From an uncultured Ignavibacteriales bacterium (GTDB taxonomy: Bacteria > Zixibacteria > MSB-5A5 > GN15 > FEB-12), in assembly GCA_964520865.1 (NCBI GenBank), contig CAZFOY010000008.1, positions 3,155 through 67,154 on the forward strand: a DNA stretch of 64,000 bases, read 5' to 3'. The position numbers and the translations under genes were made by a program. Below are positions 1,329-62,645 of this stretch, piece by piece (within the stretch, counting starts at the first letter, position 1; the number at the start of each line of letters is the position of its first letter). Under the pieces are notes generated by a model. That model had not been told where the DNA came from. It searched no databases and saw only the letters and a program-made list of their open reading frames with translations.

Positions 1329-1639
1329 TACTTTTCGACCTCTCTTCCTAAACGTCGTTCAACCGACTCGATTTTGCCGGTCAGTCTCTTTTTCGCGCCT
1401 TTGCGGTCATCGATATTGATGATGATGTAGATCCGTTGGTGCCCCTGACGATGCAGCATCATCCGGGCCCTGTTTATCACCTTCATCACCGGCTCCCAGT
1501 CGCCTTCGATGACGGTCGACATCGCTGTAAGTTTGTACGGCAGACCGGACTTGTCTATTATATCGATAACTTTCGCGACATCTTTAGAGACCGAGGTCGA
1601 ACGGTGAGCGGTCGGAAACATGGACAGCTGGAATAACAT
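1328..1639 (-). CDS. MTH1187/YkoF-family (DUF77) thiamine-binding-like protein
   Basis: The ~100-aa ferredoxin-like pattern begins at internal Met MLFQLSMFP. That start (1639) lies directly after the glyA stop (1641). The longer ORF to 1765 would run inside glyA. Confidence 0.7.
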   Translation of the reverse strand: MLFQLSMFPTAHRSTSVSKDVAKVIDIIDKSGLPYKLTAMSTVIEGDWEPVMKVINRARMMLHRQGHQRIYIIINIDDRKGAKKRLTGKIESVERRLGREVEK

Positions 1640-1640
1640 G

Positions 1641-2894
1641 TTACGGCTCCAGCCTTTCCGGGTAGAGTGGGAATTTTGCACAGAATCTCTCGACTTCGCC
1701 GGCGATTCCGGCCAGGGCTTCTTCGTCCCTTCGGTTCTGAATCGCCCGGTCGATAAAGTCGGCAATCACCGGCATTTCAGCTTTGCCCATCCCCCGGGTA
1801 GTAACGGCCGGAGTCCCGACACGAATGCCCGAAGTCACGAACGGTTTCTCAGGATCGAAAGGAACCGTGTTCTTATTCACGGTGATTCCGGCGAGGTCAA
1901 GCGCCTTCTCCACCTTCTTGCCCGTCACCTTCGGGACATCGATAAACGACACGAGGAAAAGATGCGTATCGGTGCCGCCGGCCACGAGACGATATCCTTT
2001 TTCTTTGAGAGTTTCCGACAGCGCTTTCGCGTTTTCAAGCACCCTTTGTTGATACTGCTTGAACTCATCGGTCATGGCCAATTTGAAAGCTACTGCTTTA
2101 GCGGCGATGATGTGCATCAGAGGTCCCCCCTGGATGCCGGGCATGACTGTCCGGTCGAGGTCGGCGGCATACTTCTCCTTGCACATGACGACTCCGCCGC
2201 GCGGGCCGCGAAGCGTCTTGTGGGTGGTCGACGTAACAAAGTCGGCCATCGGCACCGGTGACGGGTGCAACCCGGCAGCGACAAGCCCGGCGATATGGGC
2301 GATATCGACCATCATGTAGGCTCCGCAGGCATCGCACGCCTCACGGATCTTGTCGAAATCCCAGAACCGCGGATAGGCGGAGGCACCGGCAACGATCATC
2401 TTCGGCTTAAACTCGATCGCATCCTGTTTGAGCTTATCATAGTCGACAACTTCGGTCTTCGGATCGACCTGATACCCTTTAAACTCGTACAACTTTCCGG
2501 AGAAGTTGATCGGGTGTCCGTGGGTCAGGTGACCGCCGTGAGACAGATCCAGACCCATCACCCGGTCTCCCGGGTTAAGGACAGTAAAGTAAACGGCCAT
2601 GTTGGCCTGCGAGCCCGAATGCGGCTGGACATTGGCGTGTTCGGCGTTAAACAGCTTTTTCAAGCGATCGCGGGCCAGATCTTCGGCAACATCGACCCAT
2701 TCGCAGCCACCATAATACCGCTTCCCCGGATATCCCTCGGCATATTTGTTGGTCATTACCCCGCCGGCCGCCTCAAGGACCGCTTCCGACACAAAATTCT
2801 CCGAGGCAATCAGTTCGAGTTTGTTCTGTTCGCGCTGGGTCTCTTTGTATATCGCGTCGTATATTTCAGGATCAGCTTTTTGCAGATATGACAT
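1641..2894 (-). CDS. glyA: serine hydroxymethyltransferase
   Basis: 417 aa with [23 protein letters not shown] and the [15 protein letters not shown]-lysine motif. Confidence 0.97.
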
Positions 2895-2923
2895 ATAAAA
2901 ACTCCCGGTTTGAATTTTGCCTA

Positions 2924-2952
2924 AATGTATATGTTTTTGCCGGGAGGGTCAA
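2924..2952 (-). promoter_or_regulatory. sigma-70-like promoter for glyA
   Basis: Minus strand reads TTGACC, 17 nt, TACATT, about 30 nt upstream of the glyA ATG. Confidence 0.4.
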
Positions 2953-3099
2953 CACTGCTTATAGCGAGGGGACCGACCGCCTGGCTGTAGCACCGAGCAA
3001 GCAACTAAATTCAAACGCCCCCTTATGAATTTCCCAATTGCCCCGTATAAAGGCTGAGACAGAGAATTTCCGGGTAGAAGCAAGGGAGCATTTACATCC

Positions 3100-4083
3100 G
3101 TGACATCAGACTGCGATTGCATCGTTATCGGGGCGGGAATTACGGGCATAATGGCGGCCCTCTCCCTCCAGGAGAAAGGCCGAAGTCCGATTGTGCTGGA
3201 AAAATCCCAGAGCCCGGGCGGGCGAATGGCTACCCGAATAATCGGAAAGGTAACCTTTGATCACGGGGCTCAGTACTTCACCGCCCGAAATCAGGCATTT
3301 CGGAGAATTGTGACGGAGTGGGCCAAAAAGGGGATCGTGAGGCACTGGACCGACGCATTTCCCCGTCCGGGCAATCGGTCTCAGGACGGATTCCCCAAAT
3401 ACTGTGGGGTCGGTGGAATGGCCTCGATTTGCCGTCAGCTGGCCACGCCCCTTGACATCCGGGTCAACGAGCAAGTTACCACCGTGAAGTCGAAGAAAGA
3501 TAGATGGCTGATTTCTACCGAATCGGGTGGCCAGTATTCTACCGGAACACTCATTGTCACTGCGCCGATGCCCCGGACGCTGTCTTTGCTTAAGTCAGCG
3601 GATCTTAGACTCCCGGCCTACGTTCGAATGGGACTTACCATGATTGCGTATGACCCGTGTATTGCATTGATGGCCGTGCTCGACGGCCCTTCCAAAGTCC
3701 CGGAGCCGGGCGGAATCGAACTCGGCGGCGAGCCAATCTACTGGATGGCCGACAGCCGAATGAAAGGAATTTGCGACGACGGCCATGGCGTCACGATCCA
3801 CGCCGGACCGAACTTCAGTCAGCAGGTGTGGGATCAACCGGACGAAGAGATTGCCGAACGACTATTCGAAGAAACCGAGGAGTGGCTCGGACGAACGCCT
3901 GTGAGCTACCAGCTTCATCGATGGCACTATAGCCGAACGACGGCAACCTATCCGGAGCCGTATCTTATGATCGAAGATCCGGCCACGATGGTGCTTTGCG
4001 GCGATGGTTTCTGGGATGCCCGAATCGAGGGTGCGGCTCTTTCCGGACTGGCCGCAGCAGAGGCAGCGATGAGAGCGAAGTAG
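3100..4083 (+). CDS. NAD(P)/FAD-dependent oxidoreductase (renalase/amine-oxidase-like)
   Basis: GTG start. N-terminal dinucleotide fold DCIVIGAGITGIMAA...LEKSQSPGGRM; 327 aa. Confidence 0.8.
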   Translation: MTSDCDCIVIGAGITGIMAALSLQEKGRSPIVLEKSQSPGGRMATRIIGKVTFDHGAQYFTARNQAFRRIVTEWAKKGIVRHWTDAFPRPGNRSQDGFPKYCGVGGMASICRQLATPLDIRVNEQVTTVKSKKDRWLISTESGGQYSTGTLIVTAPMPRTLSLLKSADLRLPAYVRMGLTMIAYDPCIALMAVLDGPSKVPEPGGIELGGEPIYWMADSRMKGICDDGHGVTIHAGPNFSQQVWDQPDEEIAERLFEETEEWLGRTPVSYQLHRWHYSRTTATYPEPYLMIEDPATMVLCGDGFWDARIEGAALSGLAAAEAAMRAK

Positions 4084-4098
4084 AACGACGGATGATTT

Positions 4099-4129
4099 TG
4101 TAGGGCAGCCTCATCTTCGAGCCTGCCAT
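4099..4129 (+). repeat. REP-like element, family A (GTAG head + imperfect palindrome)
   Basis: TGTAGGGCAGCCTCATCTTCGAGCCTGCCAT. Same 31-nt architecture as 6601-6631, 23689-23719, 27552-27582, 27616-27646 and 27671-27699. Confidence 0.8.
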
Positions 4130-4136
4130 TCTCCGG

Positions 4137-4183
4137 GTGCTCTACAGCCCCGCTGCCGGTTCGTCACAACGTGAAAGATCTTC
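4137..4183. repeat. 47-nt direct repeat, copy 1 (partner 4449-4495)
   Basis: gtgctctacagccccgctgccggttcgtcacaacgtgaaagatcttc against gtgccccacagctctgctgtgggttcgtcgcaatatgagagatcttc, about 80% identity by eye. Confidence 0.7.
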
Positions 4184-4184
4184 C

Positions 4185-4213
4185 GTAGACCCGACCGTTC
4201 CTATGGCCGGGTG
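4185..4213 (+). repeat. REP-like element, family D
   Basis: GTAGACCCGACCGTTCCTATGGCCGGGTG. Near-identical copies in reverse orientation at 23467-23495 and 6490-6517. Confidence 0.75.
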
Positions 4214-4239
4214 AATCTCTGTCGAGACGCCACACCCAA

Positions 4240-4374
4240 GTCATTGCGAGAAGCAAAAGACTGAGCGCCAGCGAAGGGAAAGCGACGTCGCAATCTCGGC
4301 TTCGTCTTGTATTCGCAAGGTCGAGATTGCGACGGCTTCACGCCTATCCGGCGTGATGACCGCCTCGCAATGAC
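4240..4374. repeat. two tandem hairpin elements, family E (ATTGCGA...TCGCAAT)
   Basis: Four arms: gtcATTGCGAg (4240-4250), gTCGCAATctcg (4287-4298), cgagATTGCGAc (4322-4333) and cTCGCAATgac (4364-4374). They can pair as two adjacent hairpins or as a nested 11-bp + 12-bp structure. Confidence 0.75.
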
Positions 4375-4448
4375 GATATTTCAGCTCGCGTGAGACGGCA
4401 TATCGATGTCAGCTGTCGAGTCCCTGAACACCTATCGGCGAACGCAGC

Positions 4449-4495
4449 GTGCCCCACAGCTCTGCTGTGGGTTCGTCGCAATATGAGAGATCTTC
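4449..4495. repeat. 47-nt direct repeat, copy 2 (partner 4137-4183)
   Basis: See 4137-4183. Contains the hairpin ccacagc-tct-gctgtgg. Confidence 0.7.
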
Positions 4496-4554
4496 AAAAA
4501 AAACCACCGACACGAGTGCATCGGTGGTCGATTGATTTCCATTCGTCGACAGGG

Positions 4555-5499
4555 CTAAACCGTCACACCCTTATACGCCGGGACGTGCGTCAACCAGCCA
4601 TGCTTGTCTTCGATAGATCCATCGAGAATCCCGAAGAAGTGCTTTTGCAGTTTCTCCGTGATCGGACCACGCACCCCTTCCCCAATCTGAATATTGTCGA
4701 TTAATGAGATCGGTGTGATTTCGGCAGCTGATCCGGTAAAGAAGACTTCATCGGCAAGATAGAGCGCTTCACGCGGGATGTTCTGCTCGATAACTTTGAT
4801 ACCGAGTTCGCCGGCGATCCGAATGACGGAGCTTCGGGTAATACCGGGCAGAATCGACGCCGAAAAGGTCGGCGTAATGAGCGCACCTTTGCGAACCATG
4901 AAGATGTTCTCGCCGGAACCTTCGGACACATGTCCCATGACATCGAGGGCGATCCCCTCGACATATCCGTGGGACAACGCTTCAAGCTTGATCAATTGGC
5001 TGTTCATATAGTTCGCGCCCGCCTTGGCCATCGCCGGCATCGTATTCGGAGCGATTCGATTCCACGAGGAAAAACAGACCGACACTCCTTTTTCCAGAGC
5101 CTCTTCGCCGAGGTACTTCCCCCAGGGCCAGACCGCAATGGCGACATCGACCGGGCATTGCGACGGATCCACGCCGAGAGTGCCGTATCCGCGATAGGCG
5201 ATCGGGCGAACGTAACAGGTTTCGAGATTATTCACGCCGACCAGGTCGAGAATCGCCTGATTGATCTGTTCTTTAGAAAACGGCAGCTTCATCCGGTAGA
5301 TTTTGGCAGAATTGAACAGGCGGTCGGTATGGTCGCGGAGCCGGAAACAGGCCGGACCATCTTTGGTCTTATATACCCTCATTCCTTCGAAAACCGACGA
5401 ACCGTAATGAATCACATGCGAAAGGACATGGATCTTGGCGTCAGCCCATTTCACCAATTCGCCGTTCATCCAGATATATTCTACCGGAGTCATTGCCAT
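4555..5499 (-). CDS. ilvE: branched-chain amino acid aminotransferase (class IV)
   Basis: IWMNGELV...[16 protein letters not shown]...GANYMNS. Start moved to the Met 5 nt after a GGAGG box; the ORF is open to 5511. Confidence 0.92.
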
Positions 5500-5683
5500 A
5501 TCTGCCTCCATCTAAGCTTAAAAGTCATTTACACTTATACCTGTTTCGAAAATAACAGACGAGCCCGGCAAATTCAATCAAAATCGTCGAAGAGATACAC
5601 TTTTTCGCCCGGAGAGGGACCGCATCGCCACTCTTTATATGAAGAGTAACTATCTATGTTCCAGTAATTTACTGGGCGGTGGA

Positions 5684-6268
5684 CTATGCCTGTGGTGGCC
5701 GCGAGCGACCCACGAACCGCCAGATCGAAGGAAGTACGATCGATGCGATCACGATTTTGACGACAGCACCCGGAACGAACGGAACGAGCCCCATTTCGAG
5801 CAGAGTCGACGGTGTGGTAAAGCGTGAAAGCCAGAGCAGACCGACGGAGAATATGATCAGCGTGCCGACCAGCATCGCAACGGCCGATTTCGCATAACCG
5901 CGATCCCAGCCTTTGTCAGCGAGGTATCCGACGGCATATGCCGCGACCGGAAATCCGATCAGATAACCGCCGGTTGGGCCGAGGAATTTGCCGAATCCGG
6001 CAGAACCGCCCGCGAATACCGGCATGCCAAGCGCCCCTTCGACGAGATACGCGATCACGACCGCCGTGCCGCGCACGCGGCCGAGAGCCATGGCGATCAG
6101 CAGAACACCGAATGTCTGTCCGGTGATCGGAACGGGAGAAAACGGCAAATTGATCGACAGATAAGCGGAGGCGGCCAAAAGGATATTGAAAGTCAGGAGC
6201 AGCGGAAGCTCCATCCAGAGTGTTGTCGGTTTGTAGACTTGGTAGATTGCGGCGGTCTGTGATTTCAT
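5684..6268 (-). CDS. bioY: biotin transporter BioY
   Basis: 194 aa, multi-TM, with PVPITGQTFGVLL...GPTGGYLIGFP. GAGGAG box precedes the ATG. Confidence 0.9.
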   Translation of the reverse strand: MKSQTAAIYQVYKPTTLWMELPLLLTFNILLAASAYLSINLPFSPVPITGQTFGVLLIAMALGRVRGTAVVIAYLVEGALGMPVFAGGSAGFGKFLGPTGGYLIGFPVAAYAVGYLADKGWDRGYAKSAVAMLVGTLIIFSVGLLWLSRFTTPSTLLEMGLVPFVPGAVVKIVIASIVLPSIWRFVGRSRPPQA

Positions 6269-6392
6269 ATTAGTCTCCTCATATACTCCTGATACGGCAT
6301 CGGGAGGAATTTACTTTGAGAAGAATGCGAGGGCAAATGGTTTTGGGGGCCGGGTGGCCCGTCTGCTTGCGGCGGGTTTCTTTGACGAATTG

Positions 6393-6456
6393 AATGTCGG
6401 GTTTCTCCATCGCAGACCCCATGAATGGGGCCTGCTCGGTCGGAACGCCGACCTAC
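6393..6456 (-). repeat. REP-like element, family B
   Basis: Minus strand reads GTAGGTCGGCGTTCCGAC...GGAGAAACCCGACATT. Related to the tandem pair at 26446-26550. Confidence 0.7.
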
Positions 6457-6489
6457 ATCAAGATGACATGCGTGGCGGCATGCACGATA

Positions 6490-6517
6490 CACCCGGCCAT
6501 AAGAATGGTCGGCCCAC
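6490..6517 (-). repeat. REP-like element, family D (head degenerate, GTGG)
   Basis: Minus strand reads GTGGGCCGACCATTCTTATGGCCGGGTG. Confidence 0.65.
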
Positions 6518-6600
6518 GAAAGATCGGATTATGTCGAGACGAACCTACAGCAGAGCTGCCGGGCACCGAGGGTACATTTTGATGAAAGTGGTGCATCGGA

Positions 6601-6631
6601 ATGGCGGGCTCGAAGACGAGGCCGCCCTACA
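6601..6631 (-). repeat. REP-like element, family A
   Basis: Minus strand reads TGTAGGGCGGCCTCGTCTTCGAGCCCGCCAT, ending 8 nt past the stop of the acyl-CoA dehydrogenase gene. Confidence 0.8.
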
Positions 6632-6639
6632 CAAGAATT

Positions 6640-7785
6640 CTATTCGATTTCTTTGAGCATCTCGCGGGCGATCACGAGGCGCTGGATCTCCGAAGTTCCT
6701 TCGCCGATCTCGCACAGCTTGACATCGCGCCAGATCCGTTCGGCCGGGTAAGGTCCCGTGTAATAGCCGATCCCACCCAGGATATCCATCGCCCGCTCGG
6801 CCGCCCGTCGACCGACTTCGGATGCGTACAGCTTGCACATCGCCGAGAACTTGGTGAACTTCTCCCCCGCATCCTTCCGCTGGGCACAATCATAAATCAA
6901 CAACCGGGCGGCTTGAAGCTCCATGTCGGAGTCGGCGAGTTTATGTTGTATTGCCTGGTTGTATGCGATCGGCTTGCCAAACTGCTTGCGATCCGCGGCA
7001 TACTTCAGAGCACAGTCGAGAGCACCCTGTCCGAGTCCGAGCGCCATGGCGCCTATTGAGATGCGGCCGCCGTCGAGCGTGATCAACATCTGCTTGAACC
7101 CATCGCCGATCTTCCCGAGCAGATTCTCATCGGGAACTTTCATGTCATCGAAATGCAGGAATGCGGTGTCGGACCCACGAAGGCCGAGCTTGTTTTCTTT
7201 CTTCCCTACGGCATAGCCGGGGAAATCTTTTTCCATAATAAAGGTCGTGATCGCTTTATCTTCGGGATCGTCAGATGTGCGCGCCGTTCCGATAGTAGCG
7301 AACGCTTTCGTAGCCGACGTAATCCAGCACTTACTGCCGTTGACGATCCAGCCGTCGTCGACCTTCCGCGCCATCGTCTTGGTTCCCCCGGCATCGGAAC
7401 CGGCATCCGGTTCGCTCAAACCGAATGCGAGCAGTTCGCCTTTGGCGGCTCTCGGAAGATACTTCTTCCTCTGCTCCTCGGTCCCGAACTTGTAGATGGG
7501 AAACGTCCCGAGAGAATTGTGCGCGGCGATCATAATTCCGGTTGAGCCGCAGACGCGCGAAAGTTCTTCGACCGCTATGGCGTAAGAAATCGTATCGATC
7601 GGTCGGCCGCCGTACTTCTCCGGAAAGAGCGCGTTGAACATCCCCATCTCGGTCAGGGGCTGCATATGTTCAGTCGGGAATCGTTGTTCTATATCCAGTG
7701 TCTCCGCGAGCGGCGCGATCTTTTCCAGACAGAATGCACGCATCTTCTCGCGGAATTCGTGATGTTTCTTTTCCAGCAAAGCCAA
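6640..7785 (-). CDS. acyl-CoA dehydrogenase (SCAD/MCAD-type catalytic Glu)
   Basis: 381 aa with FGLSEPDAGSDAGG...GGRISIGA...EIGEGTSEIQRLVIA. Confidence 0.92.
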   Translation of the reverse strand: MALLEKKHHEFREKMRAFCLEKIAPLAETLDIEQRFPTEHMQPLTEMGMFNALFPEKYGGRPIDTISYAIAVEELSRVCGSTGIMIAAHNSLGTFPIYKFGTEEQRKKYLPRAAKGELLAFGLSEPDAGSDAGGTKTMARKVDDGWIVNGSKCWITSATKAFATIGTARTSDDPEDKAITTFIMEKDFPGYAVGKKENKLGLRGSDTAFLHFDDMKVPDENLLGKIGDGFKQMLITLDGGRISIGAMALGLGQGALDCALKYAADRKQFGKPIAYNQAIQHKLADSDMELQAARLLIYDCAQRKDAGEKFTKFSAMCKLYASEVGRRAAERAMDILGGIGYYTGPYPAERIWRDVKLCEIGEGTSEIQRLVIAREMLKEIE

Positions 7786-7789
7786 TGTG

Positions 7790-8935
7790 CTACTCCTTCA
7801 GCAGATCTTTTGAGATAACCATCTTCTGGGCTTCGGTTGTTCCTTCGTACAGCTCGGTCACGCGGGCATCGCGGAAATACCGTTCGACCGGATACTCTTT
7901 GATGTATCCGTAGCCGCCGTGAATCTGCACCGCCTCATTACATACGTAATTAGCGGTCTGAGTGCAAAAGAACTTGGCCATAGAGGCCTCGCGATGACAC
8001 GCCTTGCCTTCGTCTTTAAGACGCGCGGCCCGATATCCGAGCAGCCGTCCGGCATCTATCCGCGTCGCCATCTCGGCGAGCTTGAACTGAATTGCCTGGA
8101 AGTTAGCGATCGGCTGATTGAACTGCTTGCGCTCTTTGGCATACTTGAGCGCTTCGTTGAACGACGCCTGGGCGATGCCGAGCGCCTGGAAGGACACGCC
8201 GATGCGTCCGGAATTAAGAATAGTCACCGCCATGCGGAATCCGTCGCCGGGCTGTCCAAGAAGATTCTCTTTCGGGACCTTCACATCCGAGAAGCTGATC
8301 TCACGGGTGTCCGAAGCTTTGATGCCGCATTTCTTCTCCGGCGCGCCGAGGGTGATTCCGTCGGTGTCCTTATCGACGACGAAACAGCTGATACCGCGAT
8401 GACCTTCGTTAGGACGAGTCTTGGCAAACACGATCAGCACGCTCGCGTACATTGCGTTCGTCACGAACGATTTCGTACCGTTGATAACCCAGTGATCGTC
8501 GTTCTCGACCGCCGACGTGCTCAGTGAAGCGACATCGGTCCCGGCGTTCGGCTCGGTGATACAATAGGCACCAATCTTTTCGCCGGCCGCCATTGCGGGA
8601 AGGTACTTGCCCTTGAGATCGTCGCTGCCGAACAGCTTGATGATCTCGCACGTGAGAGAATTGTGAACGGACAGCATAATGCCAAACCCGGCGCACCCAC
8701 CGCACAATTCTTCGAGTACGCCCATGAACGATGTTGTCGGAAGACCGAGCCCGCCGTATTCCTCAGGGACGGTGAAGCCGAAATAACCGAGCTCCGCCGT
8801 TTCATCGATCAGTTCCTTCGGAGTGGTTCCCTCTTCGTCCAGTTCGAGCGCCCGAGGGTAGAGCCGCTTTTCCGCGAACTCCCGGGCCATCTGCTTGAGT
8901 TCAAGATCATCTTCGGACAGCATAAAATCCATCAA
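7790..8935 (-). CDS. acyl-CoA dehydrogenase (butyryl-CoA dehydrogenase-like)
   Basis: 381 aa with CITEPNAGTDV...SGRIGVS...ELYEGTTEAQKMVIS. Tandem paralogue of 6640-7785. Confidence 0.92.
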   Translation of the reverse strand: MMDFMLSEDDLELKQMAREFAEKRLYPRALELDEEGTTPKELIDETAELGYFGFTVPEEYGGLGLPTTSFMGVLEELCGGCAGFGIMLSVHNSLTCEIIKLFGSDDLKGKYLPAMAAGEKIGAYCITEPNAGTDVASLSTSAVENDDHWVINGTKSFVTNAMYASVLIVFAKTRPNEGHRGISCFVVDKDTDGITLGAPEKKCGIKASDTREISFSDVKVPKENLLGQPGDGFRMAVTILNSGRIGVSFQALGIAQASFNEALKYAKERKQFNQPIANFQAIQFKLAEMATRIDAGRLLGYRAARLKDEGKACHREASMAKFFCTQTANYVCNEAVQIHGGYGYIKEYPVERYFRDARVTELYEGTTEAQKMVISKDLLKE

Positions 8936-19575: not shown

Positions 19576-19739
19576 TTAACCCATTCGGTCAATCCGAGCC
19601 GAACGTCTTATCCCCACGCGGCGCTCAGGATGGCTGCCGTCACCCGTCGCTGACGCCGGCTACAAGGATGCCATTTGTAACCAGTGTGCATCAATTCAGG
19701 AACCCGACCGGAGGATCGCGCCCGGACAAGAGATGAAGT

Positions 19740-19792
19740 CGAGATCACGACGGCTGTAGCGCCTGCGGGCGCACCCATCGCCTCGTGATGAC
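19740..19792. repeat. hairpin element, family E (third copy, covarying stem)
   Basis: cgagATCACGAcgg...cgccTCGTGATgac is co-linear with 4322-4374 (cgagATTGCGAcgg...cgccTCGCAATgac). Two compensatory base-pair changes. Followed by TTTTTT. Confidence 0.7.
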
Positions 19793-19842: not shown

Positions 19843-19894
19843 GGTGCTCGAAGACGATGCATACCTACAAGAATTTTGTCAGTAGACCGTGACC

Positions 19895-23383: not shown

Positions 23384-23466
23384 GGCGACTTACTCCCGGA
23401 CAGATTGATTTCCGCGGTGCCATTCGATTCATGGTGTTTCCGGTACTGCTTGCGGTGGGTCCAGCA

Positions 23467-23495
23467 CACCCGGCCATAAGAACGGTCGGGCCTAC
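23467..23495 (-). repeat. REP-like element, family D
   Basis: Minus strand reads GTAGGCCCGACCGTTCTTATGGCCGGGTG. Confidence 0.75.
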
Positions 23496-23502
23496 GAGCA
23501 TC

Positions 23503-23529
23503 GTAGGTCAGGAACCCTGCGTTCCTGAC
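23503..23529 (+). repeat. REP-like element, family C
   Basis: GTAGGTCAGGAACCCTGCGTTCCTGAC. Confidence 0.8.
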
Positions 23530-23556
23530 ATTCATGATCGATTGGTGCTGCGTAAA

Positions 23557-23584
23557 GGTCAGGAGGGCGGGCCTCCTGACCTAC
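23557..23584 (-). repeat. REP-like element, family C variant
   Basis: Minus strand reads GTAGGTCAGGAGGCCCGCCCTCCTGACC. Same head and GTCAGGA arm start, with the rest of the stem swapped compensatorily. Confidence 0.75.
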
Positions 23585-23688
23585 GGATCCGGGCGTGAGG
23601 GTATTTGTTGGAGTCGAGAGAATCGAGGCGCCGAAGAAAATCTGGCCCCCCGCATTCGCGAGGGTGACATGCCTGCGGCATGCGCGTA

Positions 23689-23719
23689 ATGGCACGCTCG
23701 AAGACGAGGGTGCCCTACA
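23689..23719 (-). repeat. REP-like element, family A
   Basis: Minus strand reads TGTAGGGCACCCTCGTCTTCGAGCGTGCCAT, 18 nt past the clpB stop. Confidence 0.8.
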
Positions 23720-23737
23720 AGAGAACGTCGAGGCGGG

Positions 23738-26368: not shown

Positions 26369-26445
26369 ATTTTGTTACCTCGACTTTCGTTGTATTGACG
26401 GATCGCTTTGCGACCCGCCGCTCCCCTCCTCTAACCCCGGAATTC

Positions 26446-26550
26446 AATGTCGGGTTTCTCCCTCGCCCTTCGGCTCATCCGGAACCCGACCTACGGGGCT
26501 CAATGTCGGGTTTCTACTTCGCCATTCGGCTTGTCCGGAACCCGGGCTAG
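26446..26550 (-). repeat. tandem pair of REP-like elements, family B (period 56 nt)
   Basis: Copies at 26446-26494 and 26502-26550. Minus strand reads GTAGGTCGGGTTCCGG...GGAGAAACCCGACATT, and a second copy with a degenerate CTAG head. They lie between the J-protein stop and the clpB start. Confidence 0.8.
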
Positions 26551-26554
26551 GGGA

Positions 26555-27490
26555 CTACCCCTCCCACTCGTCCAGCAGCTTCTGCTGCTTCTCGGTCAGG
26601 TGCTTCGGGATTGTCACTTTGATCTCGACATAGAGATCTCCCTGTTTCCCGCCGACCGCCAGTCCCTGGCCCTTAAGACGCATCCTCGTTCCCGGCTGAG
26701 TTCCGGGCGGAACGGTCAGCTTGATCGTTTTGGTCAGCGTCTTGACCTCCGCTTTCGTTCCTTTCATCGCCTCGATAAACGAAATCGTGGCCGACGTATA
26801 AATATCGTTTCCCTTGCGTTCGAAATTTTGATCCGGCATGACATGCACCGTTATGATTAGGTCACCACTTTTGCTTCCATTGTAGCCCGACACACCCTGT
26901 CCGGCCAATCGTATTTTCTCACCGTCGCCGATCCCCGCAGGGATCTTCACCCGGAGTTTCCGGCCGGTATTGCCGATCGTGATCGTCTTCGACACACCTC
27001 TGGCTGCTTCCACGAACGAGATCGACAGATCGGCCGCGATATCCGGGGCTTTCTGCGGCTGACGTTGCCACGGCTGTTGGGCGGCCGGGTGGCCGCCGAA
27101 TATCGACGACAGGATATCTTCGAACCCGCCCGCGCCGGCGGCATTACCGCCGAAATTGAAATGGAACGACCGGCCTCCGCCGCCTCGTCCGCCCTGGCGG
27201 AACATCTGGGCAAACGCGTCCGGATCGAACCCGCCCATTCCCGGACCGCTTCCGGGCCCGCCTCCGGCGAACGCGCCGTACTTGAGCATCGTGTCGTACT
27301 CGGTTCGCTTTTTCGGATCGGACAGCGTCTCGTTCGCTTCGGAGATTTCCTTGAATCGCTTTTCCGCGTCGACGTTGCCTTTGTTGCGATCGGGATGATA
27401 CTTCTTGGCCAGCGTGCGGAACGCTTTCTTGATGTCATCCTGCGAAGCATCTTCCTTCACGCCGAGTATTTCGTAAAAGTTCTGGGCCAT
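26555..27490 (-). CDS. J-domain co-chaperone, CbpA-like (DnaJ class II, no zinc finger)
   Basis: J domain YYEILGV...YHPDRN, a Gly-rich linker and two C-terminal beta domains. No CxxCxGxG repeats. Confidence 0.88.
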
Positions 27491-27551
27491 GTTAAAGTAT
27501 CACCACCTTATCTTCAAATTTCTCCCGGCATCGGTCGGTTGTTGGCAGTCT

Positions 27552-27646
27552 TGTACTGCACGTCCTTCTTAGAACGTGCCATCAGTGAAAGGCTTGAGCC
27601 TTTCTCGGGCAGCCTTGTAGGGCACGTCCTTCTTAGAACGTGCCAT
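27552..27646 (+). repeat. two tandem family-A REP-like units (64-nt period), each followed by the hairpin gaaaggc-ttga-gcctttc
   Basis: 27552-27582 reads TGTACTGCACGTCCTTCTTAGAACGTGCCAT. 27616-27646 reads TGTAGGGCACGTCCTTCTTAGAACGTGCCAT. Confidence 0.85.
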
Positions 27647-27670
27647 CGGTGAAAGGCTTGAGCCTTTCAA

Positions 27671-27699
27671 GGCAGTTTCTAAGAAGGAACTGCCCTACA
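27671..27699 (-). repeat. family-A REP-like unit in inverted orientation (REPIN-like partner of 27616-27646)
   Basis: Minus strand reads TGTAGGGCAGTTCCTTCTTAGAAACTGCC. Together with 27616-27646 it forms an 84-nt imperfect palindrome. Confidence 0.8.
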
Positions 27700-27884
27700 A
27701 TCGAACCGCCCTACAGAGCAACTGCCCTGCGGGAGATTATGTAAACTGTAACGTACTATACTCGCAATCCGTTTCACTATTCGCGGCCCTGCGCCGGTCA
27801 AACCGTACGTTTAACCGACGCCGCCACGAACGGGTCGGAGCCTGTGAATAGAAACTACTCACAGAACTCCATCTATGTCAAAGG

Positions 27885-32739: not shown

Positions 32740-33880
32740 GTGATTCTCCAAAACAGAGGATGTATCCTTTGTCGGTCGCAACGTACACGTTGTCTCCATC
32801 GCTTACCGGGGCCTGGGCGATGGCGCCTTTCAACTGCCGTGTCTGAACCACGCTGCCGTCGGTCCGCTTCAGGGAGTACAGTTTGCCCGACATCGTTCCG
32901 AAGATCACGTAATCATCGACTGCGATTGCCGAAGCTCGGATGACGTCGACCGCGTCGTACTTCCACTTCACGCTACCGTCGGAACCGTCGATCGCCGCGA
33001 GCACGCCGCCGCTGTGCCCGACATACACGCTTCCGTTCTCGACTGAAGGTGAAGTCCAGATAGGTCCGTCGAGTTTCGTTTGCCAGCGGATACTTCCCGA
33101 GCCGGGGTCGATACCGACTACGTCACCTTTCATGTCGGTGGCGTAGACCAATTCCCCGACTGCCACTGCGCTCACCATCGGGCCATCGAGCTTCACCCGG
33201 TACAGCTCGGATCCATCCTTGATCTCCAGAGCGTACAGCGTGCCGTCATCGGACGGTTGGTAGAGCCTGCCGTCGGCGAATGACGCCGGCGCAGAGATTC
33301 TTCCATCGACAGTGACACTCCAGATCGTCTTGCCGGAAAACCGGTCAAAAGCGGTAACGGTCTTGCCGGAACCGACAATCAGGAGGTCTTTTACTATTAT
33401 CGACCCGGCGGCGGCATCCTTTACCGGCCTGTCCCATAGCTGCTTGCGGCGAAGCAGGTTGATACATTTGAGCTGGCTGTGGTACGGGCCGACAGCGAAA
33501 TAGCCAAGGCTATCTTCAACTGCCATACCCGTTTGCGGGTTTCCACCCGCCTTCACATAGCCCAGGTATGAGCCGTCCCGAAGAGCATATATCTTAATCT
33601 TGTTTCGGGTCCCCGGGTAGATCAGGTCATTGAAAGCCAGCGTCAGCGGGCCGGCCGGTTTGTCGTTGCTTCTTGTCTCCCAGCGGATGTCGAGTCGGCC
33701 GGAGAATTTTCCGGCCGGCTTGGAGGCTTGCGAAGCCGGCATATCGCGGTACAGCGGCCAGGCACTGTTCAAAGATGCTTCTTCCCGATCCAGCTTGAAT
33801 CGCCGGGTGCAGCCTGGGGCCAGCAGCAGTCCCGCCGCGAGTATTAGTATTATGAATCTGAGCCTGCTCAAAAGTTCCAC
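32684..33880 (-). CDS. PQQ-like beta-propeller lipoprotein (BamB-like)
   Basis: Lipobox LLLAPGC. Repeated ...DG.LYA../G..W... propeller blades. The GTG start overlaps the upstream gene end by 13 nt. Confidence 0.8.
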   Translation of the reverse strand: MELLSRLRFIILILAAGLLLAPGCTRRFKLDREEASLNSAWPLYRDMPASQASKPAGKFSGRLDIRWETRSNDKPAGPLTLAFNDLIYPGTRNKIKIYALRDGSYLGYVKAGGNPQTGMAVEDSLGYFAVGPYHSQLKCINLLRRKQLWDRPVKDAAAGSIIVKDLLIVGSGKTVTAFDRFSGKTIWSVTVDGRISAPASFADGRLYQPSDDGTLYALEIKDGSELYRVKLDGPMVSAVAVGELVYATDMKGDVVGIDPGSGSIRWQTKLDGPIWTSPSVENGSVYVGHSGGVLAAIDGSDGSVKWKYDAVDVIRASAIAVDDYVIFGTMSGKLYSLKRTDGSVVQTRQLKGAIAQAPVSDGDNVYVATDKGYILCFGESHEPGSQPDQRSDPLSQSQ

Positions 33881-51325: not shown

Positions 51326-51366
51326 AATCTACCCTTTCGTGAGCATTAGCGTTTTCCGCTTTAATC

Positions 51367-51381
51367 GCAACGCCAATGCCA
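51367..51381 (-). promoter_or_regulatory. sigma-54 (-24/-12) promoter upstream of the PorV-like gene
   Basis: Minus strand reads cTGGCAT-TGGCG-TTGCg, with exact GG-N10-GC spacing. The -12 GC is 41 nt upstream of the ATG at 51325. Confidence 0.6.
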
Positions 51382-51908
51382 GAACCATCCAGTGGTTCGG
51401 GCTTTTTCTCCGTTATCCTGCGATTCCGGAGATGTGTCTGTAACTGATTATGGTCCAACCCATTCCCAGTGAGGCAAGACCGTATTTCAGACGGTTTTTC
51501 GGAGTCCCCTGGAGCCGTCGCAGTAACGTCGGCACCCTCTCTGTTCAGTCTGTGGCCACCGCTATTGCGAAAACTCCAGATCCTATGAACCATCTCTCAC
51601 TTCTACAACGACTTCTGCCCGGAGTCCAAAAATACAACACTTTATTTGTATTGTCGGAAACTTGAACAGCCATTTCACTCAAATATGGGGACTATCCCAT
51701 ATTTCTTGACCTGATTTAGCGTAACTTCAAGTTGTTGTCAACAAAAATGGTAGTTTTTCCGGAAATATTTTCCGCCGACTATCTAATTGTAATTTATAGA
51801 CTTAACTTGACGAATAATTTCATCCAATGAAATCAGAGGCTGTTACCATGATCGCACCGCAGAAACGGTTGAAAGTGCAGGATTTGAGTCAGAGAGAAAG
51901 CTCGAAAA

Positions 51909-61918: not shown

Positions 61919-62570
61919 TGACTTTCTCCCTGGACGAGCCGCCGGATCGTGAGAATTTGTTCTCGGTGCCGGAGAGCAGCCTGACGATGTTCTGCCGGTG
62001 AGTGAGCAGGATGAGTAGCAGCAGAGCGGCCGCAAGATAGAAGTAGACGATCGCAATCTGCGTATGCATCATAAATCGCTCAATTGTTATCACGGCGAAC
62101 AGGGTCAACGCACCCATCATTGAACCGAGCGATATGTATCTGAAAACGACTGCCACAATCAGGAATACTCCGAAACTTATCAGCGTCTGCAGCGGAAGCA
62201 TGGTGACCATTGTCCCGAGGGCGGTGTTAACTCCCTTGCCGCCTCTGAAACCAAGATAGACGGGGAATATGTTACCGATCACACAGGCCATGGCACATAT
62301 TACATAGAACACATCCGGTGATACCACTGCGAGCGCGTAATGGGCTGCTACATACTTCGCGCCGAGGATCACGGCGACACCTTTGCCGATATCAAGAGCG
62401 AACACCCAGACGGCTACTTTGAAGCCAGCGGCCCGCCAAACGTTGGTGGCGCCGATATTTCCCGATCCGACTGTGCGAATATCAGGAATACCGGCCAGCC
62501 GGGCCACTACGAGGCCGAAAGGAATGGCGCCGATCAAATAGGCGATTATGACGACGAGAAGAGTAATCAT
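61911..62570 (-). CDS. plsY: glycerol-3-phosphate acyltransferase PlsY
   Basis: YLIGAIPFG...GSGNIGATN...FRGGKGV. Confidence 0.93.
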   Translation of the reverse strand: MITLLVVIIAYLIGAIPFGLVVARLAGIPDIRTVGSGNIGATNVWRAAGFKVAVWVFALDIGKGVAVILGAKYVAAHYALAVVSPDVFYVICAMACVIGNIFPVYLGFRGGKGVNTALGTMVTMLPLQTLISFGVFLIVAVVFRYISLGSMMGALTLFAVITIERFMMHTQIAIVYFYLAAALLLLILLTHRQNIVRLLSGTENKFSRSGGSSREKVNV

Positions 62571-62591
62571 CGGTAGACGTATGTATCTAAG

Positions 62592-62616
62592 CGATGGCGC
62601 GCATCGCGCGCCATCG
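62592..62616. other. perfect 11-bp GC-rich hairpin/palindrome
   Basis: CGATGGCGCGC-atc-GCGCGCCATCG, between the hypothetical gene stop (62646) and the plsY start (62570). No U-tract on either strand. Confidence 0.5.
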
Positions 62617-62645
62617 ACCCACTTTAGCTTCTTAGATCCGTAGTT

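Follow-up and report, generated by a model that had tools for sequence, protein, structure and literature searches.

In a 64,000-nt stretch of contig CAZFOY010000008.1 (GCA_964520865.1, positions 3,155-67,154 of the forward strand; placed in Zixibacteria by GTDB), hereafter called the window, we analysed a 471-bp spacer at 4084-4554 that separates two convergent genes, one for a flavin adenine dinucleotide (FAD)-dependent amine oxidoreductase and the other ilvE. The explanation that we favor, with a probability of about 0.85, is that short hairpin-forming DNA repeats, non-autonomous and belonging to two known classes, have gathered in this spacer as a nest. The first class would comprise repetitive extragenic palindromes (REPs) with a GTAG tag, namely families A and D and a degenerate family B, which would form hairpins on single-stranded DNA. 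The second would be represented by E1 and E2, two units with a (C/T/A)GTC tag that are joined head to head as a heterodimer and whose enzymatic partner is probably a GIY-YIG nuclease of the Ssn type. In window coordinates, the spacer and its borders are made up as follows.

3100-4083, + strand: gene for the FAD-dependent amine oxidoreductase (Pfam Amino_oxidase 8e-26, NAD_binding_8).
4100-4127, + strand: family A GTAG REP, which folds with both RNA and DNA parameters, has other copies and covaries.
4137-4183, + strand: family B, a 47-nt repeat, copy 1, with 79% identity to copy 2.
4185-4212, + strand: family D GTAG REP, with a hairpin fold and other copies.
4240-4298, - strand: E1, the left half of the head-to-head dimer, which related contigs retain jointly with E2 in a stretch of 135 nt.
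4320-4374, + strand: E2, a 55-nt composite hairpin and the right half of the dimer, supported by fold z-scores and by a family of 79 units.
4449-4495, + strand: family B, copy 2, with a perfect 8-bp hairpin at 4453-4471.
4496-4530, - strand: intrinsic terminator of ilvE (stem from 4529 to 4496), with 12 counted stem pairs followed by T8, outside all repeat families.
4555-5511, - strand: ilvE, a branched-chain amino acid aminotransferase (class IV; Pfam Aminotran_4 1e-50).

The units follow one another in the order A(+), B, D(+), E1(-), E2(+) and B, ahead of the ilvE terminator, and the first of them lies 16 nt from the oxidoreductase stop codon. All spacer elements listed in an earlier note on this DNA were found at, or within 1-2 nt of, the positions it had given, and the terminator at 4529-4496 on the - strand, which it had missed, was added to them. 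Its description of the spacer as built almost entirely of repeats was right about their presence but too strong about their extent: they cover about 70% of it, and the segment 4375-4448 matches no repeat family. The spacer as a whole folded more stably than its shuffled versions (z = -3.7 for the + strand and -4.8 for the - strand). E2, a solitary family E unit elsewhere in the window (E3), and the whole E pair gave z-scores of -2.9 to -5.5 against shuffles with RNA or DNA parameters.

We scrutinized the GTAG-type units for their structure and their copies. Family A consists of GTAG at 4100-4103 followed by GGCAGCCTC / GAGCCTGCC, which form a nine-position stem within 4104-4127 around a 6-nt loop, with one conserved C.C mismatch. 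Family D has GTAG at 4185-4188 followed by ACCCGACC / GGCCGGGT, an eight-position stem ending at 4212 with one conserved A.C mismatch. The tag of family B is degenerate, reading CTAC in copy 1, GTGG in copy 2, and GTAG in the copy at 6538. Copy 1 of this family is an imperfect palindrome with CTAC at 4142-4145 and then a tail beginning GGTTCGTC, and the hairpin of copy 2 pairs CCCACAGC with GCTGTGGG. GTAG or CTAC adjoins the stem in families A, A', D, F, and G, the last two being further GTAG families that occupy other spacers of the window. Other copies of family A lie at 6599-6631, 19846-19872, and 23688-23720, and a variant, A', at 27544-27700. Family D recurs on the - strand at 6486-6512 and 23467-23496, as well as in L090 (L numbers denote the loci compared with the window). 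Family B has a third copy at 6531-6566 (-) and a fourth in L010 (1407-1430). In blastn-short comparisons against the 64 kb, the A, B, and D copies were recovered with E values of 2e-7 to 7e-4; at the weak end stood the third D copy, at 7e-4, and the comparison of one 47-nt copy with the other, at 3e-3.

When GTAG with a hairpin behind it was searched for strictly, 10 sites were detected in intergenic DNA (8.6 kb, 13.5% of the window) and 4 in coding DNA (55 kb), with 5.9 sites in whole-window shuffles, so that the intergenic density is about 16-fold above that of coding DNA. All 10 intergenic sites sit in the first 28 kb (4100-27700), and none occurs from 28000 to 64000 despite long gaps there, such as 32800-33867, 51326-51908, and 62057-62645.

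The stems of families A and A' covary. Among 17 distinct sequences, five of the eight stem pairs were altered on both sides, and pairing was kept in 93% of cells, compared with 82% after shuffling. None of 500 shuffles reached the observed pairing or covariation score, and pairing fell to 19-42% when the partner columns were slid. The family A stem sub-types AG/CT, AC/GT, and GG/CC were present in two species, that of the window and a sister species described below; each is complementary and retains the C.C mismatch.

To place the families in related genomes, we scanned 185,579 species-representative genomes with a family A pattern in which the variable stem positions were free. Fourteen exact matches were obtained, every one of them in a single uncultured Zixibacteria metagenome-assembled genome (MAG). 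Its syntenic genes are 82-87% identical to those of the window, and this MAG is therefore a sister species and not the source. The closest sequence that we found is a JGI metagenome contig 99.96% identical to window 1555-8511, and the best named homologues of ilvE are Zixibacteria proteins. Copies of families A, B, D, and E are present in the sister MAG and in related metagenome contigs as well.

The spacer locus was also compared with that of more distant Zixibacteria. There, rpiB directly follows ilvE with a gap of 0-1 nt, and the gap between bioY and ACAD is 54-97 nt; the repeat-filled spacers are therefore specific to the window lineage. In L102, L104, and L105, the genes are arranged on a single strand in the order ACAD-ACAD-bioY-ilvE-rpiB-(MORN/RLAN)-SHMT. 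In the window (1641-5511), the convergent amine oxidoreductase gene and the repeat spacer stand in place of rpiB and its neighbour. The rearrangement is lineage-specific, with the target spacer as its junction.

These comparisons bear on the explanation that the palindromes reflect chance or the composition of a GC-rich spacer, or are decayed genes of the relatives' locus. The region from SHMT to ilvE is indeed rearranged relative to distant relatives, and some two-copy short matches within the spacer do not rise above chance, and this probably applies to the short repeats D2 and D10, which flank the E dimer (4219-4243 versus 4392-4420). This explanation is, however, extremely improbable in view of the blastn-short E values, the families common to the sister species, the covarying stems, and the roughly 16-fold excess of GTAG hairpins in intergenic over coding DNA. 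The version that invokes gene remnants was rejected, as tblastn with the relatives' rpiB and MORN proteins matched nothing in the window.

Whether an enzyme of the REP type accompanies the GTAG families was determined by tblastn with the E. coli REP-associated tyrosine transposase RayT (NC_000913.3). Regular expressions for HUH/Y1 motifs missed the gene described next, and negatives from that motif search are uninformative. The sister MAG encodes a RAYT of 165 amino acids (L013 6559-7056, - strand) that is 34% identical to E. coli RayT. It scored 130 bits with NCBIfam REP_Tyr_transpos (cut-off 80) and matched TnpA-REP (PDB 4ER8) with E = 2e-25. The gene is bordered by two inverted family A REPs whose GTAG points outward, one at 6494-6521 (+) and the other at 7151-7178 (-), and the arrangement of a RAYT gene between inverted REPs makes it a REPtron. 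A second RAYT, the closest homologue of the first and 62% identical to it, was found in L099, a contig of the JGI sample that holds the 99.96% copy of part of the window. This gene stands between direct copies of a composite in which an A-like and a D-like REP are combined with two other repeat units known from the window, and part of the composite aligns with window 6395-6507 at 80%. A third RAYT gene (L101) lies within A-like REPs of alternating orientation.

Two other sequence features accompany these genes. The palindrome GACTGACATCCCCTGTCAGTG stands about 20-25 nt upstream of the start codon in all three RAYT genes examined (L013 7077-7096, L099 197-216, L101 about 941-961), whose products have an identity of just 59-62% to one another; this palindrome might act in regulation or be a REPtron recognition hairpin. 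A composite block, made of a D-like REP, a CATGCC...GGCATG palindrome, and a long hairpin of the G type, is present at window 6395-6507, L099 735-935, and L013 7316-7513 with about 80% identity, and adjoins the RAYT gene in two genomes. With H and G denoting two further repeat units of the window, D-H-G blocks stand next to RAYT genes.

We then examined family E, the second class of repeat in the spacer. E2 is composed, from outside to inside, of GTC/GAC, a GAG bulge, the stem ATTGCGA/TCGCAAT, CGG/CCG, and an inner stem of seven predicted pairs with the core CACGCC/GGCGTG. It folded to -28.9 kcal/mol with RNA parameters (z = -4.7) and to -19.6 kcal/mol with DNA parameters (z = -5.5). E1, read on its tag strand, is aGTC-ATTGCGAG...CGTCGCAAT-CTCG with a purine-rich interior. 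The opposite-strand tag of E2 is CGTC-AT, and E1 and E3 carry AGTC. The earlier note had described two tandem E hairpins: E2 and the dimer are significant, but E1 alone as a hairpin is not (z = -0.2 with RNA and -0.6 with DNA parameters). It had also proposed a nested pairing of 11 and 12 bp between the arms of the two units. The outer arms (4240-4250 versus 4364-4374) are complementary at 11 of 11 positions as proposed, but the second pair of arms (4286-4298 versus 4322-4334) matches at 13 of 13 positions, not 12. The solitary unit to which E2 had been compared is

19738-19792, + strand: E3, a family E unit with the stem ATCACGA/TCGTGAT, co-linear with E2 at 4320-4374.

The replacement of ATTGCGA/TCGCAAT in E2 by ATCACGA/TCGTGAT in E3 is exactly as had been claimed and amounts to two compensatory pair changes. 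The orthologue of E3 in L029 has the same CA/TG pair, which is confined to the 19738 locus and its orthologue and is therefore a single event. The interior of E3 (19756-19776) holds a GTAG of its own followed by a 5-bp stem (GCGCC/GGCGC) and resembles a miniature GTAG REP inside GTC-tagged ends; at the position of this GTAG, the interior of E2 reads TCAC.

To estimate the extent of the family, metagenomes were scanned with the pattern GTCGAGATNNCNACG, a gap of 20-36 nt, and CTCGNNATGAC. The scan yielded 84 stretches with 88 reported matches, and a regular-expression re-scan that included the window and earlier loci gave 91. The free NN/NN positions were Watson-Crick complementary in 80 of the 91 matches, distributed as TG/CA (41), CG/CG (32), TC/GA (4), CA/TG (2), and GA/TC (1). 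The single GA/TC match lies inside an open reading frame (ORF) of 1015 amino acids and is probably chance, and 10 of the 11 non-complementary matches are in long ORFs and likewise look like chance. We took 79 units on 73 metagenome contigs as true. They have 68 distinct interiors, about 65% of which contain a perfect inner stem of at least 5 bp. Their contigs span 35-75% GC, a range that we used as a proxy for host diversity, and one of them (L027) is attributable to Dehalococcoidia.

On the other strand, the consensus of the family reads (T/C/A)GTC tag, ATNNCGAGG, interior, CG(T/C)(G/C)GCAAT, CTCGAC. The first base of the tag was left free by the search pattern. Among 70 distinct units, the tags were TGTC in 47, CGTC in 13, AGTC in 9, and GGTC in 1, so that this base is T or C in 60 of the 70. 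The stem begins with AT, ends with AT, and is followed by C, as in GTC-AT(TG/CG/..)CGA ... T(C/G)GCA-AT-C; these positions were fixed by the pattern, and independent evidence for them comes only from the window units and the partner units of the L016 dimers. The results for families A and E bear out the view of the earlier note that structure rather than sequence is conserved: the covariation of A and A' exceeded that of 500 out of 500 shuffles, and the free positions of E are complementary in the great majority of matches. Compensatory stem change is well supported for A and E2. The earlier note had also named two findings that would speak against its proposal, the lack of copies elsewhere and the lack of covariation; copies of A, B, D, and E were found in the window, the sister MAG, and metagenome contigs, and covariation was found in A and E.

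Family E units frequently occur as pairs. A head-to-head partner was detected 38-178 nt upstream of 25 units out of 74, and tail-to-tail partners, lying downstream, are rare (6 of 68). For the other 49 of the 74, all of which have sufficient sequence upstream, no partner tag was detected, and an E1-like unit stands alone in L004. The 135-nt E1-E2 dimer is present with 84-90% identity in five contigs, L028 (twice), L064 (twice), L060, L069, and L090, the two copies in L028 and in L064 lying in tandem. In three of six aligned dimers, E2 has switched to CG/CG and E1 is still TG/CA. In these switched dimers, the stem of E2 itself covaries (U-A to C-G), and a U.G pair and an A.C mismatch appear in the nested fold. 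The nested fold is the thermodynamic optimum (-65.9 kcal/mol) but does not covary, and it was rejected as the conserved structure; since the E2 stem covaries within itself, the side-by-side fold appears to be the conserved one, on the basis of six sequences only.

The dimers raise the question of whether the 135-nt E1-E2 unit is a MITE (miniature inverted-repeat transposable element), bounded by 11-bp terminal inverted repeats, that arose by deletion from a DDE-type insertion sequence and is mobilized by a conventional transposase. Its perfect 11-bp inverted termini (4240-4250 versus 4364-4374) and the repetition of the whole unit, with its tandem copies, are as expected of such an element. 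However, solitary units exist, including E3, the one in L004, and the 49 units lacking a partner tag. No target-site duplication was seen at the dimer ends in one alignment inspected by eye, and no parent element was found. In heterodimers, the terminal arms no longer match perfectly, whereas the stem of each unit still does. Among the neighbours of E units, no Pfam enrichment was observed over 171 families, which included no transposase; this test used ORFs of at least 90 amino acids, the longest within 1.2 kb, and hence missed small GIY-YIG genes. In addition, the ends carry the tag, AT, and C signature of the CGTC REP and Ssn-related hairpins introduced below, and E dimers flank GIY-YIG genes. 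We therefore rejected the MITE explanation, which we regard as very unlikely, because solitary units exist and a target duplication was not seen.

For family E, the partner is probably an Ssn-type nuclease, small and with GIY-YIG as its single domain. Ssn proteins are single-domain GIY-YIG nucleases, that of N. meningitidis having 94 amino acids; they bind a hairpin on single-stranded DNA (ssDNA) only, not RNA, and cut just upstream of the tag (PMC11893778). For cleavage, the three bases ahead of the palindrome are important, and for binding, the C that follows it (PMC11893778). The repeats linked to these enzymes are the NTS (CGTCATTCCCGCGMAVGCGGGAATCYRG) and, more broadly, the Ssn-related motifs (SRMs), a tie made in 2025 (PMC11893778). 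By tblastn, GIY-YIG proteins of about 80-100 amino acids were encoded in 4 of 84 loci selected for E. Three of these loci, two of them homologous to each other, have E units no more than about 250 nt from the small GIY-YIG gene. E dimers stand on both sides of the gene in L016; L032, homologous to L016, has the downstream dimer only and is cut within the gene. In L018, a canonical SRM, TGTCATTCCCGCGAAGGCGGGAATCCAG, is found directly upstream of this gene, and E units stand on both sides. In the fourth locus (L065), the GIY-YIG gene is accompanied by SRM-like hairpins of its own, the E unit being 3.8 kb distant. No RAYT was detected by tblastn in the four GIY-YIG loci. In another Zixibacteria MAG (L106), a GIY-YIG gene is flanked by canonical SRMs.

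Further observations concern these genes and motifs. In L018, the segment 2760-3345 (- strand) forms a cassette composed of the canonical SRM, the GIY-YIG gene, and five tandem 20-nt partial SRM copies. It is bracketed by direct repeats of about 45 nt, each with the 5' part of an E unit, and looks as if it had been inserted at, or had duplicated, an E unit. In the window itself, one sequence, TGTCACCCTCGCGAATGCGGGGGGCCAG at 23642-23669 (- strand), fits the published SRM pattern, for which 0.37 matches were expected in shuffles. Orthologous copies of TGTCACCCTCGCGAATGCGGGGGGCCAG are present at L007 1832-1860 and L009 2486-2513, and very similar units flank the GIY-YIG gene of L106. Upstream of the GIY-YIG genes of L111 and L113, an SRM has a long interior bearing a hairpin, TGTCATCCCGGCcaagtCACGCgaaGCGTGatgcgaGCCGGGATCCAG. 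SRM variants with an extended interior thus exist beside ssn-like genes, in parallel to the build of family E.

On these grounds, family E is probably a divergent member of the SRM class and probably works like an SRM. We put forward more tentatively, as something that need not hold even if the foregoing does, that E is a cross-phylum, modular SRM subclass with a GIY-YIG clade of its own, sharing Zixibacteria mosaics with RAYT-dependent GTAG REPs. If so, recognition and cleavage would depend on the fixed tag and outer stem, and the inner hairpin would be replaceable, needing only to fold; two unrelated systems that process single-strand hairpins would then shape the same spacers.

A different explanation is that the hairpins are mainly RNA elements, acting as stabilizers in 3' untranslated regions, as terminators, or as small RNAs, and that their repetition is secondary. 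We found no terminator-like site on the + strand of the spacer, and the oxidoreductase transcript therefore probably enters the repeats, the first of which is so close to its stop codon. The hairpins are stable as RNA, family A has a few G.U pairs, the nested E heterodimer keeps a U.G pair, and many REPs have been suggested to be transcribed (PMC3733652). On the other side, the ilvE transcript should end ahead of the repeats, given its terminator at 4529-4496. The copies occur in both orientations relative to genes: the spacers of E are convergent in 10 cases, unidirectional in 17, and divergent in 6, with E on the same strand as the gene in 11 of the 17 unidirectional ones. The same units also stand beside unrelated genes in many organisms. 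Rfam revealed only two tRNAs in the window at the gathering threshold, and only sub-threshold chance matches in the spacer and 16 E-bearing loci at E <= 1-5. Moreover, RAYT acts on single-stranded REP DNA in vitro (PMC8266576), and Ssn acts on ssDNA only (PMC11893778). An RNA role as the main function is thus unlikely; an effect on RNA is possible as a secondary one, as a by-product or a later co-option.

We return to the reading of the spacer as a nest of DNA repeats, for which the following course can be proposed. Repeats would pile up where insertion is harmless, that is, downstream of two converging genes and past the ilvE terminator. RAYT recognises a bulged hairpin together with the motif that precedes it, and processes single-stranded REP DNA in vitro (PMC8266576). 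A RAYT/TnpA-REP enzyme of the HUH/Y1 type would accordingly read the tag and bulged stem of the GTAG units, cleave and rejoin the strand, and so spread the REP families. If recognition and propagation are limited to copies still able to fold, compensatory stem changes would result, and sub-families would arise from different master copies. The A-B-D module and the 135-nt E dimer may then have been copied whole by recombination or replication slippage. We infer the action of RAYT and of an Ssn-type nuclease on the window copies, the presence of both in the genome of the window, and a possible benefit to the host through protection of the 3' end of the oxidoreductase mRNA.

Several observations weigh against this reading or parts of it. 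No RAYT was found in the 64-kb window or in the examined loci of its closest relatives, save L013 and L099; L099 shares a sample with the window and may come from the same organism. Family A, with its 14 exact copies in the sister MAG, is far below classical REP families in number, as counted with a strict pattern, and families B and D have few copies, 4-5 each in the sequence examined. As for E, units E1, E2, and E3 all fail the published SRM pattern HGTCWYN(0-2)YYVSBRHN(0-5)WNVSBRGN(0-2)RNCYNB. A GIY-YIG gene is absent from the window, from the examined loci of its close relatives, and from the E-bearing Zixibacteria loci examined. The association of E with such genes amounts to three loci, two of them homologous, and most E units have no nuclease gene nearby.

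When compared with known systems, the GTAG units resemble the REPs associated with RAYT/TnpA-REP, such as E. coli REP/RayT, the REPINs of Pseudomonas, and the SMAGs of Stenotrophomonas, in having the same 5' GTAG, an imperfect palindrome of 20-30 nt, and a conserved mismatch. GTAG REPs are described as having several families per genome, complementary sub-families, and a tag followed by a bulged palindrome (PMC3733652). They constitute, with CGTC REPs, two super-families that form head-to-head dimers and prefer convergent or unidirectional spacers (PMC3733652). The families described here likewise number several, include complementary sub-families, are intergenic near the 3' ends of genes, and form inverted doublets. 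RAYT genes flanked by their own REPs, as in REPtrons, were found in L013, L099, and L101, not in the window itself, and the RAYT of L099 departs from the usual REPtron by lying between direct rather than inverted composite copies. The window units differ from known GTAG REPs in their stem and loop sequences, in belonging to the phylum Zixibacteria, and in a modest apparent copy number. As in REPINs, inverted doublets are conserved and copied together (the 135-nt E1/E2 unit and an A' pair), and solitary units occur too. A full-text literature search found no paper that pairs 'Zixibacteria' with 'repetitive extragenic'.

The likeness of the spacer to the bacterial interspersed mosaic elements (BIMEs) of enterobacteria, drawn by the earlier note together with the remark that the unit sequences differ, was borne out by the several families, the composite modules, and unit and linker sequences unrelated to those of E. 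coli. REP types are packed between gene ends, composite blocks (A-B-D and D-H-G) are repeated, and orientations strictly alternate in L101. Unlike BIMEs, which consist of Y and Z REPs with defined linkers, the target spacer has unrelated unit and linker sequences, its orientations do not strictly alternate, and it mixes two super-families, one GTAG-tagged and the other GTC-tagged. By its sequence make-up, the spacer is BIME-like in build and outside the BIME family proper.

Family E shares with CGTC REPs and SRMs (NTS/dRS3) an unpaired (C/T)GTC tag and a stem that starts and ends with AT and is followed by C. Like them, it is intergenic across many phyla, occurs mostly as head-to-head dimers, often heterodimers, and has no transposase near it. 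A further likeness to SRMs is suggested by single-domain GIY-YIG genes for proteins of about 80-100 amino acids, flanked by repeats of its type in L016, its homologue L032, and L018, which make two independent loci. Family E differs from SRMs in its stem, the 7-bp ATTGCGA, in which a C.C or G.G mismatch is frequent, and not ATTCCCGC, in its tail, CTCGAC and not CCA, and in its interior of 20-36 nt, often with its own hairpin, compared with a 4-5-nt loop. The supplements of PMC3733652 contained no sequence matching E, which can be set beside the families CGTC-1 to CGTC-4 of that work by description only. A literature search with the end sequences of E retrieved only unrelated PCR primers. Integron attC sites resemble E in their short conserved ends, variable central hairpin, extrahelical bases, and recognition as ssDNA; they differ in their cassette arrays, integrase, and end sequences, whereas E forms inverted pairs in ordinary spacers, so that the likeness is one of architecture only.

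Elsewhere in the window, three other assemblies of the same repeats were found.

6478-6640, - strand: second, inverted copy of the A-B-D composite module with a 27-nt insertion, from alignment to 4090-4225.
23467-23718, - strand: REP mosaic composed of D (23467-23496), two F units, a TGTC-tagged SRM of canonical type (23642-23669), and A (23691-23718).
27617-27698: REPIN-like inverted pair of A' REPs, 27617-27644 (+) and 27671-27698 (-), preceded by a tandem 64-nt copy.

The two A-B-D copies (4090-4225 on the + strand and 6478-6640 on the - strand) bracket ilvE and bioY, and inversion or recombination could act on them. The two members of the A' pair (27617/27671) are 87% complementary. A 56-nt unit of the G family is duplicated in tandem at 26444-26555. 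At 27544-27668, a tandem duplication with a 64-nt period (61-nt repeat) contains an A' REP and a small hairpin (GAAAGGCTTGAGCCTTTC) in each of its two copies. These two local duplications indicate that REP clusters also grow by tandem duplication. At the site orthologous to window 23387-23719, the sister MAG (L007 1621-3857) has about 1.9 kb extra, bounded by REPs and absent from the window, with two hypothetical ORFs of 305 and 178 amino acids. Two ORFs of the window that run through repeats are most likely spurious: one of 104 amino acids at 4390-4704 (+) begins in the target spacer and is antisense to ilvE, and one of 100 amino acids at 6354-6656 (+) crosses the repeat-filled spacer past bioY.

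The target spacer is ordinary in kind, as E. coli BIME clusters are, and a full-text search retrieved no earlier account of such repeats in Zixibacteria. The findings extend REP/RAYT biology to this uncultured phylum of the FCB group. For annotation, they mean that long, highly structured spacers in these genomes are nests of repeats and do not conceal genes or riboswitches. Modest in its novelty, the E subclass has ends conserved over 35-75% GC, no Rfam entry, and a sequence outside the published SRM pattern. Because E escapes that pattern, surveys of SRMs may under-count a whole subclass. GIY-YIG proteins of the L016 type, together with E units, could give new specificities for the toolbox of ssDNA nucleases, and the E subclass offers a lead for work on Ssn nucleases and the evolution of REPs.

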